A stretch of 64,000 bases of DNA from Harriotta raleighana (Eukaryota), in contig JBNZDD010013574.1 of assembly GCA_050575255.1 (NCBI GenBank), forward strand, positions 378,244 through 442,243, read 5' to 3'. The notes below the pieces were generated by a model that saw only the letters and a list, made by a program, of their open reading frames with translations, ran no database searches and was not told the DNA's origin. The translations under genes and the position numbers were made by a program. Positions 11,777 to 57,222 of this stretch are shown here, one piece after another. Position 1 is the first letter of the stretch, and every line of letters starts with the position of its first letter.

Positions 11777-13455
11777 AGACCTACCCGGGCGGAGGCTGCT
11801 GTTTCCAGGTCACGACGCTTGCTAAACGTTCTGATCAATGGCAGGAGAATGAAACTATGGAAAGCCCTCTCCGCGACCCGAGGAGCCGAGATTGCCTTTC
11901 CAACGGATGTGTGAGGAAGGCTCCGGGCATCGCGGACAACGCCGACGCAATGAGGTTCCAGGTATTGAACCCGTACCAGTCCAGGTTCAACACCGAGGAC
12001 CCCGTCATTGACTCCGACGACAAATCCAGGACCTCGAAATTCCTCAGGTTCTTCTTCAAAACAAGCGGGGCCGCGGGCTACGAGAAAAGGCCCCATTCGA
12101 TGATGGTTTTCGGGGAGGCTCCCAAACAGAAGTCAAAATTGTCCTTCCTGGACAGGCTGAGGTCTCTGAAACGACTGAAGTCCGCAGCCTTCTTCAGATT
12201 ACGATCGGCCAAAACCCCCAAGTGCAAGACCCACTCAGATTTTTGGAGCAGCGATCAGGAAGAGATGCCAAACGGGATCTTTACATCCAAGTCCGTGCTG
12301 GATAAACGGACGTTTAGACACACATATTCCGGGGAATTAAAGGACTTTGATTCAGTCGGAGGCGTGAATCTAATGGGCAACGCTCCAGAGGCGATCAGCA
12401 GTGAGGACTCTGAGGTCGAGGAGTTTAACAAAAGGTGGAAAAATGGCCAGTTATGCCTCAAGGATTCAAACGGAGGAATGATGGACTCCAACATTCCCTT
12501 CTGTGCCTCCCTCTCAGTGTTCCAGGAGGGCGCTCGCAACAAGTACACAAAGTTTCCGCAAGAGTGTCGGAAGAGCAGGAAAAGTGATCTTTTAAATTAC
12601 CTGAAAAGGATTTCACTCAAAAAGCCACTCAGTGCAGATGTTGCCGATGAGAAGTCGGACAATGGTGACGACCGGGGCTCGGACGGGACGGTGGCCGATT
12701 CTTCCATCGGACAACCCGAGGCCAAATTCAACGCCACGAGGGATGGGAAGAACTTGTCGAAGGTTATCGATTTCAGCAACGTCTTTAAACTCATTAGCAG
12801 AGCCAGCAAGCAGAGGAACTATTCTGATGTCTTATCACGGTTCGAGGAGACACCTGCACCGAAACCGAGGAAAGAGCACGGTCTTCAGGGAATACCCATC
12901 CATTCCCAAGCTGGGACTGGGAATTGTATCTTGCTGTCTCGGTCATCTCTCAACCCAGATTCTGGGACGTTCGACCGCTTTACTCCGTCCATTCCTACAG
13001 AAAGCAAAAGCTCCAAGGAAATCACCAGGGCTGAAATCTCAGTGTGGAGACAGAACCCTGAGCTGTCTGACTCGCTCAGGCCCAGCGCCTTCTCTTCTGA
13101 CAAGCCTAGCGCTCCCGATGTAATTCCAACGATGTCCTCTTTGGATTGCCCCGGCAGCGAGAGTAGGGTCGATCCCCAAGTTGCGAACACGAGAGCGAGA
13201 TACGAGGCTACTACGCCGACGTATTTTCGTGCCGCCGCAAAGACAAGTGAGGTGCCAATTCGCATCGAATCGACCTTCAAGTCGGCAGGCGATACACAGC
13301 GTTCCTGTGCTGTAGCCAAGCAAGGGTTCGCCAGTCCAACAATGGAACAGATAGAGACTGAGCCCCAAAAGACTCTGAAAGTCAGTCCGATTAGCAGCCA
13401 AACCCAGACCAGCCTTTGCCCAGCCTTACTCCAGAGTGAAGAAAAGAGAGACCAG
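11777..13455 (+). CDS. ARHGEF9: Large internal exon of the long ARHGEF9 isoform, encoding an ASEF/SPATA13-like N-terminal region (likely ATG at 11857; 533 codons to the donor)
   Basis: 580-codon open frame. Acceptor tttcttgtttctgcag|11777, Kozak-like ACTATGG at 11857, phase-0 donor CAG|GTAAGA at 13456. Motifs RPHSMMVFG, SLKRLKS, RKSRKSDLLNYLKRISLKK and DFSNVFKLIS resemble SPATA13 long-isoform motifs as recalled (RPHSMVLVG, SFKKLKS, RRSKSTDNLAFLKKSSFKR, DFDRVFKLVS). Confidence 0.85.
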
Positions 13456-13586
13456 GTAAGAAACAGACCTGCAGGGGCAAGCACATGTGAGAGATAAAAG
13501 AATGTATATCAATTCGTAAAATGCCATAGGTTGTTCTCCCCCCAAATTTATAGGGCATTCTGCTTTCTTGCTCATCTATGTATAGT

Positions 13587-13905
13587 GATCCTGTAGCTCA
13601 GTGGTTAGAGCAATCGCCTTTCGAGAGTGAGACCTGTGTTCGAATCCAGGCAGAGCAGGGCGAAACCTTGGGCAAGTTTCCTTACACCACACACGCGCCT
13701 AATAGTAATCCGTCCAAAAAATCCCACAATAATAAAAAAATTGGTCATTTCAATCCACGACTGTTTGTGGGGACACTGTTGTGTGCAATTGCCTGCTGTG
13801 TTTCGCCCACAAATATACAATCAATTCACTTTACAGTATATTCTGTGAAGCGCTTTGAGATGTCGATAAGATGTGAAAAGCACTATACCAAATGCAAGAA
13901 TTATT
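13587..13905 (+). mobile_element. Full-length SINE
   Basis: Head, core and tail match the family. Confidence 0.9.
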
Positions 13906-14169
13906 CTAGTGATCGAACGCTTCAAAATAAACCCAGTCACTTTTTTCGATCGTTTGCCTTTTCCCTTGCTGCTATGAGCAGTGCAACATTTAGTACAAGT
14001 GGGGTTTAATCATTTTGAACAGATACATGTCTATAAATTGCCTTTTATTTGCTCATTACATTAAACCTTCAACCCATATCCTCTTGTTCGAAGCTCTTTG
14101 AGAAGCCGTTCGGCATGGAGGGTGCTCTATAAATCCAAGTTGTTGTTGTTCCTGAAAATATTGTTATGG

Positions 14170-14270
14170 CTTTACTTTCTCGATCCCTTTAAGTATCTTG
14201 TATAAGGTGTCTTCAGCCTCTTTTCAAGGCTGACAAGCCCCAGCTTATCTAACTGTTCCCATTAGCACAT
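14170..14270 (-). mobile_element. CR1-type LINE reverse-transcriptase C-terminal fragment
   Basis: Reverse strand reads ...EQLDKLGLVSLEKR...LYKILKGIEKV, like the CR1 motif ERLxxLGLFSLEKRRLRGDLIxxYKILKG. Confidence 0.6.
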
Positions 14271-54590: not shown

Positions 54591-55407
54591 AACATCAGCA
54601 TTCAAGGCTGCTCTCTCCACCTCTCGAAACCAGTCAGGAATCTGGGCGTCTTGTTTGACCCCGAACTGTCCTTCCTCCCTCATATCCGCTCCCTGACAGG
54701 TATTGCTTTCCACCAACTCCGCAATATTGCCAGGCTCCGCCACTACCTCAATCCCCCAGGCCGCCGAAACCCTCATTCATGCCTTTATCACCTCCAGGCT
54801 TGACTACGGGAACTCTCTCCTCGTCGACCTTCTAAACTTCTCCCTTCAAAGGCTGCAAATCATTCAGAATTCTGCAGCTCGTGTACTCTCCCACATCAGG
54901 CTTTGTGACCACATCACTCCCACCCTCGCCTGTCTCCACTGGCTCCCCATCCCCCAGAGGATCGACTTCAAGATCCTCGTCCTCACTTTCAAGACCATTC
55001 ACGGCCTTGCCCCCGCCTATCTCTCTGCCCTGCTGTCTCCCTATCAGCCTGCCCGCACCCTCCATTCAGCAGACTCGGGCCTGCTCCACATCCACCGCCC
55101 TAACTGCCCAACTATCAGTGGCCGGGCTTTCAGCCTCTCTGCCCCCACACTATGGAACTCCATCCCGCAGTCCCTCGACCTTGCTTCCTCCCTTTTCTCC
55201 TTCAAGGCCGGTCTCAAGACCTTCCTCTTCGACCACACCTTCGGCTCCCCCTCTGACTCTTCCCTGTCTCCCACTTTCCTTTCCCCTCCTTCTATCCCCA
55301 ACCCTCCACCCTCTGCTCGGGTCCCGACCTGACTGTTCAGCGCTTTGGGACGTCCTCCCGACGTGAAAGGCGCGAAACAAATATAATTTTGTTGTTGTTG
55401 TTGTTGT
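54591..55407 (+). mobile_element. L2-clade LINE, 3' ~0.8 kb (ORF2 C-terminus, 3'UTR, (TTG)n tail)
   Basis: AETLIHAFITSRLDYGNSLL...LQIIQNSAARV...DHITPTL..LHWLPIPQRIDFKIL...GRAFS..APTLWNS.P...FKAGLKTFLF is the typical L2 ORF2 end; frameshifted upstream. Confidence 0.92.
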
Positions 55408-56750
55408 CATGAACAGCAGCATCAGAAATGTGGAGCCATTTGGTCTTTTGAGTCAATTGGTAGCTTCTTGAGATAATGTGAAAAATAATCCCTAATCTAT
55501 GAAATAAATTTCAAGCTCCAAGGATTTATATACCAGCAGATTTGCTATCGCTGGTGGATCTGAAAGGGTTACACAAATAAAAACCTCCCATCACTGTCAG
55601 CCATATGAGCATAAAGTGGTGCTCTGTGCTAAGTGCACTCAGAATAGGTTGTTTTCAATGGTCAAGTAATCTAGAGGAGAAAAAACCTATTCTCTCAGCG
55701 CTCTACTTCTCTGGGAGCTGTTGTCTTTAAAGCGAGGTAGTCCAGGGTTACACAGCGGAGATGAGGGAACGCAACAATTTCCTGCGTTTTATACAGAAAC
55801 TCCGCTCGATAGACAGAGAGTTGGAGTAAGATTGAATTCGACAAAAATGACAGTTTCAGGTTTTAGGCCTGTGACTCGTGGAGGGAGGATGTTTTGAGTT
55901 AAATGTACAGTGATGTGATGGGTAAATGGACTAGTGGTTCGATGAGTACATGGGGAGATCCAACGGAGCAGGAGTAGTCCAGACTAGTAATCCATGGGAG
56001 CTCCAAGATGACTTGAGGGATTATTTTTCTCAATTGAATTCCTCCGGATCCTTGATTTTTGCAATCGACCATCTATTAAATTGGATCAATTCCTGACTCG
56101 GTGATGAGAAGATAAATGTGATGCAGGTTGGGCATTGACGGAATGAAAATCTTGTTTTGTGTTTTTGGGGGTGGATCCCGCCATCTTTTCCTCCTTCGCT
56201 TTGGGTTTTCCTGCACTCACCATATTGGTCTGAAAGTTATAGCCATAACTGCTCTTTTCATTCGTTTAGCCGGGTGTCTTGACACTTGCGTTAACCCATC
56301 GCCGCGCTTAAGAGTTATCCAGACCGAGCTGAGAATTCCATTCATTTCATTCCCACCTACATGTGAAAATCCCAGAGATAAGATCGTTGGAATGGAATGC
56401 GCACTCTCTCCCTGGAGGGAGGCGTCCTTCTTATCTAATCCCACAAAGTATTAGGGGCAGGTTTGCAAGAGCCAAGGCTTGGTGGTCCCTAGAGTGTGCG
56501 CATAATTGCTCCAATTAGAATTATATTCCCGCATGGCTAGTTTTGATTCCTTAATCCTGCTTCTCTATGTAAAGGAATTCGAGACTGTGTGTTTAGCTAC
56601 ATTTCGGTTTTTTCTTGGCAGAATAATTTTTGATAATAATATGTTGTTTTCAATTCACGTTGTCGTTCGCCTTGCGTCTCTCCCACAAAAGCTAAGTTGA
56701 TGTGGTCATGCTACTGTCAGTCAAACGTCAAAGTAGAGTGTAGTCGTTGA

Positions 56751-56930
56751 GTCAGGCAGCATCTATGGAGAGAGGTTAGAGAGTTAACGATTCAGACAAC
56801 TGGTCATCGACCTGAAACGTTGACTCACTTTCCTCTCTCTCTCTCCGTAGATGCTGCCTGACCCGCTGAGTGTTCCCAGCGACTTCTGTTTTTATTTCAG
56901 ACTTCCAGCCTCTGCGGTGTGTTGCCTTTT
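56751..56930. mobile_element. Penelope-like / shark palindromic repeat remnant forming a ~112-nt hairpin
   Basis: gtcaggcagcatctatggagagag (56751-56774) pairs with ctctctccgtagatgctgcctgac (56839-56862); inner gagttaacgattcag pairs with ctgaaacgttgactc. Family assignment is from memory of shark repeats. Confidence 0.6.
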
Positions 56931-57042
56931 TGTCAATGTAGTGTGTGATGTGGTAGCTTTTTTGTTGCTGGATGATAATAACTTTTAATCTTGTTTTTTT
57001 TTTTTGCTTGTCTTTTTCTCTTCTCTGTGCGTTTGTTTCCAG

Positions 57043-57222
57043 CTGATCACTGGTGGTTACATTGTCAGTGCTGAGGCAGTATGGGATCACGTCACAATGG
57101 CCGACCGTGAGTTGGCATTTAAAGCTGGGGACGTCATCAAAGTCCTTGATGCTTCCAACAAGGATTGGTGGTGGGGACAGATCGACGATGAAGAAGGCTG
57201 GTTTCCCGCCAGTTTTGTGAGG
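57043..57222 (+). CDS. ARHGEF9: SH3-domain exon of collybistin (180 nt, phase 0/0)
   Basis: Long polypyrimidine acceptor ...gtttgtttccag|CTG and donor AGG|GTAAGT at 57223. [60 protein letters not shown] differs from recalled human ARHGEF9 at ~3 of 60 positions and is clearly more distant from the SPATA13/ARHGEF4 SH3. Confidence 0.95.

Follow-up and report, generated by a model that had tools for sequence, protein, structure and literature searches.

ARHGEF9 is a well-studied epilepsy and intellectual-disability gene, and its paralog SPATA13 is known for pairs of promoters yielding long and short products, the long form being linked to glaucoma. According to the accessible parts of the respective papers, collybistin, the ARHGEF9 product, begins at its SH3 domain (PMC12032442), contacts among SH3, DH and PH keep the short protein closed and neuroligin-2 opens it (PMC7939476), and the SPATA13/ASEF2 isoform SP-1277 carries 625 extra residues that are largely disordered and of unknown function (Waseem et al. 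2020, PMC7233598). Here we describe a 64,000-nucleotide (nt) stretch of Harriotta raleighana DNA (G000:C13574:378244-442243 in a genome of 1.1 Gb, referred to as the window) in which four exons, likely spliced into an ARHGEF9 form of ~1,260 residues, precede the ARHGEF9 SH3 exon. At a probability of roughly 85% we read this locus as ARHGEF9 with four SPATA13-homologous exons giving rise to a long form and an internal promoter giving rise to the short form, the layout dating from the jawed-vertebrate ancestor and the long product being an exchange factor for guanine nucleotides (GEF) that would act independently of APC.

Compared with the collybistin forms CB1-3 (PDB 4MT6, 2YSQ), the locus represents the same gene, with a core 86% identical to a bat short form, an AMER1 neighbour, a SPICA-type leader and an M-T-L start; the published forms, as far as their accessible descriptions go, start at the SH3 domain, whereas the form predicted here gains 747 residues from four upstream exons. 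With SPATA13/ASEF2 SP-1277 it shares a long and largely disordered front part on a short GEF, encoded by homologous exons of identical phases, but the cores are only 61% identical, the APC motif of ARHGEF9 is degenerate and basic, and short SPATA13 retains the region that binds APC, the short start of ARHGEF9 being located downstream of the corresponding region. ARHGEF4/ASEF1 (PDB 2PZ1, 2DX1, 3NMZ) has the same phase series before the SH3 domain, an SQSTP-like exon and an AMER neighbour, but differs in its canonical acidic APC exon and in a first exon of at least 1,634 open codons.

All coding features of the window described here lie on the + strand. The large first coding exon of the long form (11777..13455) follows an acceptor that ends at 11776; its ATG at 11857, which aligns with residue 1 of a shark model, opens 533 codons that run to a phase-0 donor. 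It is followed by a 375-nt phase 0-0 exon with an RPxSVI motif (18901..19275), the counterpart of a 369-nt SPATA13 exon, by a phase 0-1 exon of 145 nt that has a proline-rich stretch and an SQSTP motif (21610..21754), and by a 122-nt phase 1-0 exon (33964..34085) at the position of the ASEF APC-binding exon, its motif being degenerate and the exon as a whole basic, not acidic. The initial annotation had joined these exons in phases 0,0,1,0 into 747 stop-free codons, and splice signals and frame confirm this: the coding lengths are 1599, 375, 145 and 122 nt, AG acceptors and GT donors are present at these coordinates for all four exons, the donors match 6-7 of 7 consensus positions, and 747 codons with zero stops lead in frame into the 180-nt SH3 exon (57043..57222). 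The latter scores ~117 bits with ARHGEF9 structures vs ~92-94 bits with ARHGEF4 structures, in line with its earlier assignment as ARHGEF9-type.

A profile of 23 bony-vertebrate ARHGEF9 N-termini recovered exon 1 with 145 bits, exon 3 with E 9e-10 and exon 4 with E 0.016, and its reversed controls gave no match at E<=10. Shark and ray models of the same gene match exons 1-3 and the SH3 exon in order, exon 4 being matched weakly (E ~0.1), and eight further tblastn blocks covering DH, PH and tail are located beyond the window (~G000:C13574:445100-470000). Most of the large exon is of low complexity, interspersed with short conserved basic motifs; the motif at its 3' end emerged from a SPATA13-ARHGEF4 alignment and was recognised by eye in the window translation. 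Exon 4 had 0 matches at E<=10 among PDB sequences.

The genome contains exactly three close matches to the SH3 exon (100, 78 and 72%). Over its SH3-DH-PH core the window gene shares 86% of residues with bat short collybistin and 91% with a shark arhgef9a model, but 61% with SPATA13. A tree of 21 rows places this core inside the ARHGEF9 clade at 100/100 (85-91% vs 61% identity), not with SPATA13 or ARHGEF4. The window gene branches beside sharks and rays both in this tree and in one of the first-exon region. Judged by these sequence comparisons, its identity as ARHGEF9 (collybistin) is confirmed, and the other two SH3 loci are assigned to SPATA13 and, by exclusion and by its APC exon, to ARHGEF4. 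Gene order points the same way: a myotubularin gene, an ankyrin gene (presumably ASB12), an AMER gene of 1,204 codons and ARHGEF9 follow one another on one strand of the contig, the AMER gene being named AMER1 from its open reading frame (ORF) length (1,204 aa) and position, and AMER1 and the myotubularin gene are the neighbours expected for ARHGEF9. All three AMER matches in the genome sit upstream of an ASEF-family gene on the same strand; in the accessible part of Boutet et al. 2010 (PMC2949870) the AMER-ARHGEF-MTMR block is described as a genome-duplication product.

In this genome the SPATA13 exons measure 1842, 369, 145, 137 and 180 nt with phases 0,0,1,0, the third exon thus having exactly 145 nt in both ARHGEF9 and SPATA13. 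A profile of 10 SPATA13 N-termini matched window exon 1 (E 3e-5), exon 2 (E 3e-10) and exon 3 (E 8e-13), with none of the reversed controls scoring, and comparison of the ARHGEF9 and SPATA13 N-terminal profiles by HHalign resulted in 98.8% (E 6e-17). The view that the front exons mirror SPATA13 is therefore supported, with homology to ASEF-type long isoforms established for exons 1-3. The same phases recur in ARHGEF4, where a phase-0 exon of very large size is accompanied by an SQSTP-like exon (E 0.001-0.006) and by an APC exon of the canonical type. The large ARHGEF4 exon (G000:C13537:729098-733999, minus strand) is one exon that stays open over at least 1,634 codons, mainly of acidic low complexity.

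A quick tree of the first-exon region (18 sequences) separates ARHGEF9 from SPATA13 with a support of 100. Within ARHGEF9 the order runs from cartilaginous fishes over ray-finned fishes, lungfish, frog, sauropsids and marsupial to placentals, i.e. it equals the accepted vertebrate order, indicating that the extension was already part of ARHGEF9 in the jawed-vertebrate ancestor. The gene before duplication can reasonably be inferred to have carried it, too. The window layout is closer to SPATA13 than to ARHGEF4, as might be expected if ARHGEF9 had gained its front exons later by copying them from SPATA13, but we regard such a gain as highly improbable, since the first-exon tree parts the two genes with full support and shows vertebrate branching, the exons occupy the paralogous position behind an AMER gene, and the phases are common to ARHGEF4. 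Altogether, we hold with high confidence that gene structure and ancestry are as read here. A derivation of the large exon from AMER/WTX was also considered and rejected, as HHalign against AMER gave 0.1%, no better than reversed controls; a search of the ESM Atlas with the marmot N-terminus led to AMER3 clusters at 0.86, which is under the reliable range.

The fourth exon had originally been taken for an APC-binding exon, a claim that proved too strong. As far as the accessible text of the source goes, APC recognises the sequence XGGG[D/E]X-hydrophobic-hydrophobic, the fourth glycine being most conserved (PMC4860839; peptide data in PMC8100458, likewise accessible in part). Window exon 4 breaks this consensus, position 4 being Ala and position 7 Arg, and retains the acidic residue; both paralogs of this genome have an intact GGEQLA core. 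The last 40 residues before the SH3 domain carry a net charge of +3 in the window vs -9 and -7 in the paralogs, and the median charge before the SH3 domain is +5 in 160 ARHGEF9 proteins vs -12 in 48 SPATA13 proteins. Given the decay of the APC motif and the change of the acidic stretch to a basic one, the long form is probably activated without APC, and we consider independence of APC the probable state. If ARHGEF9 were instead a true third ASEF, APC would bind the exon 4-SH3 region and activate the protein as it does ARHGEF4 and SPATA13. Such a role would fit the position and phases that exon 4 shares with the APC-binding exon, the retention of the acidic residue in the window, many reptiles and marsupials, the GGEQL core in the squamate proteins P0096 and P0099, and the contribution of the SH3 domain to APC binding described in the accessible part of PMC7233598. 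We nevertheless consider it unlikely, given the alanine and arginine substitutions in the window, the basic charge of the region and the loss of the acidic residue in placental copies. Most teleost SPATA13 proteins (within P0017-P0075) are off the APC consensus as well, and a valine replaces the fourth glycine in most of the 48 SPATA13 rows.

The long form extends far beyond this species. With exon 1 as query, 7,136 candidates contained four models from sharks and rays, several of which are filed as gene arhgef9a; the shark region led to a lungfish model among 66 matches, and the lungfish region to 501 proteins of 658-2097 residues. The best 120 of these 501 include turtles, lizards, snakes, birds, frogs, salamanders, a caecilian, marsupials and placentals as well as sturgeon, paddlefish, bichirs, bowfin, tarpon and eel; from the clusters we further obtained pig, ground squirrels, koala, wombat, wallaby, chicken, pocket gopher and carps. 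At least 450 residues precede the SH3 domain in 208 of 257 collected proteins, and 160 of the 208 have an ARHGEF9 core (two mis-parsed short proteins, P0193 and P0196, were left out of this set). Of the motifs scored, four from exons 1 and 3 recur in 153-158 of these 160 long ARHGEF9 proteins, among them the SQSTP motif of the 145-nt exon (158/160), and a fifth in 129. Moreover, eight Logan contigs of only 3.9-5.9 kb (P0076, P0119, P0152, P0161, P0224, P0250-P0252; their clusters include chicken and rabbit) each encode a full long protein of 1,176-1,371 residues. As the exons are tens of kb apart in our window, such short contigs with a joined protein would imply spliced RNA.

These data also bear on whether the front exons might be a separate gene, connected to ARHGEF9 by rare read-through or by a mis-joined assembly. 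Records in some databases contain the front part on its own (P0205, P0211, P0217), and six N-containing joins fall into the 34-57 kb region of the window. The idea is largely refuted, however, and retains very little probability, as order and frame are identical in 160 long proteins from sharks to pigs, the joined protein is encoded on eight short assembled contigs, and the paralogs have the same layout. A mis-join between front exons and core in particular was rejected by comparison with the shark and ray models and by AMER synteny.

The 375-nt exon behaves differently from the rest of the extension. Its RPxSVI motif is present in 20 of the 160 long ARHGEF9 proteins, all from cartilaginous or ray-finned fishes; amniote long models are devoid of the exon, and in chicken-like, lizard-like and pig-like records the large exon is spliced straight to the 145-nt exon. 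Since it is also skipped in one ray isoform (model P0003), it is likely a cassette exon that was lost in lobe-finned lineages. Other exons are skipped in some mammalian long models: among others, P0264 omits the SH3 exon, and P0191 and P0226 omit the 145-nt and the fourth exons, so that long forms without parts of the regulatory region may exist.

The initial annotation regarded the extension as specially kept by this lineage and missing in mammals, which did not hold. Intact long models were found in six marsupial genera and in ten placental genera (pig, warthog, alpaca, rabbit, pika, marmots, two ground-squirrel genera, beaver and pocket gopher). The large exon nevertheless appears to be in the process of being lost in some placental mammals. 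A profile search of 1.84 billion representatives resulted in 44 matches, 41 of them new, of which ten were looked up by name; 16 of the 41 are closest to placental references, two covering the whole exon and 14 being fragments. In a rhinoceros model on a 140-Mb contig the protein stops after 181 homologous residues, and P0279, present on 258 contigs, loses the frame after 105 residues; short contigs or sequencing errors may be behind part of the placental fragments. No human, mouse or rat record is among the best 120 of the 501 matches. Together with the predominance of fragments and with structures and a review in which collybistin starts at the SH3 domain, this would suit a long form restricted to the lineage of Harriotta raleighana and absent from mammals. 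As a general statement such a restriction is refuted by the intact models in marsupials, placentals, birds, reptiles, amphibians, lungfish and ray-finned fishes, leaving it next to no probability, but it may hold for primates and mouse-like rodents.

As long models occur across jawed vertebrates, the familiar short brain protein likely originates from an internal start site. SPICA is described as a conserved small ORF in the leader of brain ARHGEF9 mRNA (accessible part of Kitano et al. 2018, bioRxiv 10.1101/325571). Between exon 4 and the SH3 exon the window contains a 64-codon upstream ORF (uORF; 47769..47963, second ATG at 47868) that is a likely SPICA ortholog in the short-form 5' leader, its first half matching by eye the 26-residue mouse SPICA peptide of that preprint. 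The C-terminal half of the uORF is hydrophobic. About 210 nt 3' of it an M-T-L start is directly followed by a phase-0 GT (48175..48183), the predicted end of the short-form first exon, and the bat short isoform P0197 has the same M-T-L directly before the SH3 exon. Both elements mark the gene as an ARHGEF9 ortholog and agree with the proposal that the short-form first exon is internal, so that this exon, with a predicted promoter before the SH3 exon, would likely yield the short neuronal form. The SPICA uORF itself is outside the long form and serves here as a marker of the internal first exon. A ~112-nt duplication spans the N at 48234 and includes a second M-T-L copy (48288-48296); it is likely due to overlapping sequence in the assembly. 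Neither the alternative mammalian short start of 10 residues, seen in P0194, nor the 19-residue extra exon of rays was found in 34085-57043, and Pfam identified no families in the four front exons, the uORF or the marmot N-terminus. In human colon, ARHGEF9 is reported to have alternative first exons (accessible part of PMC7275609), and fishes may already be contained in the supplementary SPICA alignment of Kitano et al.

Several points speak against our reading of the locus. Long-form junctions, internal promoter and protein in Harriotta raleighana are predictions from the DNA, and the proteins used for comparison are mostly automated gene models. Exon 4 gave no match to the SPATA13 profile at E<=10, and because profile-level similarity is absent it is position, phase and a short end motif that indicate its homology. 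The proposal of one architecture for all three paralogs stands as regards a layout ancestral to jawed vertebrates, but extends to ARHGEF4 only in part, i.e. to phases and APC exon: the large exons of ARHGEF4 and SPATA13 resemble each other weakly (HHalign 28.5% vs <=0.45% in 10 shuffles), and the ~370-nt exon was sought in ARHGEF4 but not found (best E 6.1). There is no jawless or invertebrate outgroup among the ten of 41 new profile matches looked up, so that the pre-duplication state is only inferred. The donor of the short form is weak, matching 3 of 7 consensus positions. Finally, a G/D-A/S-E-Q/K pattern occurs at the APC motif in 96 of 162 rows, two rows being mis-parsed short proteins, and weak APC binding is possible as the acidic residue is kept in many lineages.

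In the scenario we favour, an AMER-ASEF block would have been duplicated with the genome to give a three-gene family, most lineages retaining long ARHGEF9, lobe-finned lineages dropping the 375-nt exon and some placentals now losing the large exon. The long protein would be an SH3-autoinhibited exchange factor for the Cdc42 family, whose front part, disordered for the most part and bearing short motifs of basic or proline-rich type, may set location and partners, and which would probably be activated without APC. We would go further only tentatively, and with some doubt: collybistin might be a truncated product, specialised for neurons, of a gene that ancestrally yielded mainly a GEF of 1,000-1,500 residues, free of APC control. 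This larger protein would persist in fish, frogs, birds, pigs and rabbits and would repeatedly be in the process of loss in placentals, possibly including human and mouse, the species on which work on collybistin is largely founded, with the N-terminal 300 residues of AMER1 perhaps spliced on as well.

On our reading collybistin would not be natively short but one of two products of an ASEF-type gene, and studies of fish, frog, chicken, pig or rabbit that use knock-outs, antibodies or expression data may touch a second, far larger protein with a different job. The three paralogs would constitute a natural experiment in the change from an APC-activated GEF to a neuroligin/gephyrin-linked synaptic adaptor, and the same set bears on the role of the conserved front motifs, including those of the SPATA13 long form. 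The sequences as such are already part of automated annotation. RefSeq and UniRef models of the same isoform (e.g. XP_078403565.1, basking shark; XP_040526466.1, chicken; XP_020936292.1, pig; XP_008270923.1, rabbit) were generated automatically and are often mislabelled SPATA13 or uncharacterized. No functional description of these models came to light. Among the papers listed by a literature search that did not cover most subscription papers, none deals with a long N-terminus of ARHGEF9 or with a transcript joining AMER1 and ARHGEF9, and the accessible parts of PMC9878567 and PMC7649087 contain nothing on a long ARHGEF9 form. In our view the long form is real, ancestral and widespread, annotated automatically in dozens of species and apparently unstudied.

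AMER1 is located at G000:C13574:342485-346096, ~44 kb upstream of the large exon. In the ray model P0015, named ARHGEF9 isoform X6, 294 AMER1 residues are directly followed by the 145-nt exon. The AMER1 gene studied here has a phase-0 donor-like site after codon 308, at about position 343408 of G000:C13574, within ~3 residues of the P0015 junction and in the top 4 of 146 GT sites; a conserved AMER1-ARHGEF9 read-through is thus possible on the basis of a single model from a single species.

The introns of the window contain fragments at 54697-55366 and 13554-14009 that are LINE-like (long interspersed nuclear element) and similar to tRNA-derived SINEs (short interspersed nuclear elements). At single-N sites (5048, 27262, 27540 and 50828; also in 48122-48346) near-identical tandem copies of 90-175 nt lie on both sides of the N, a pattern typical of contig overlaps left unmerged.

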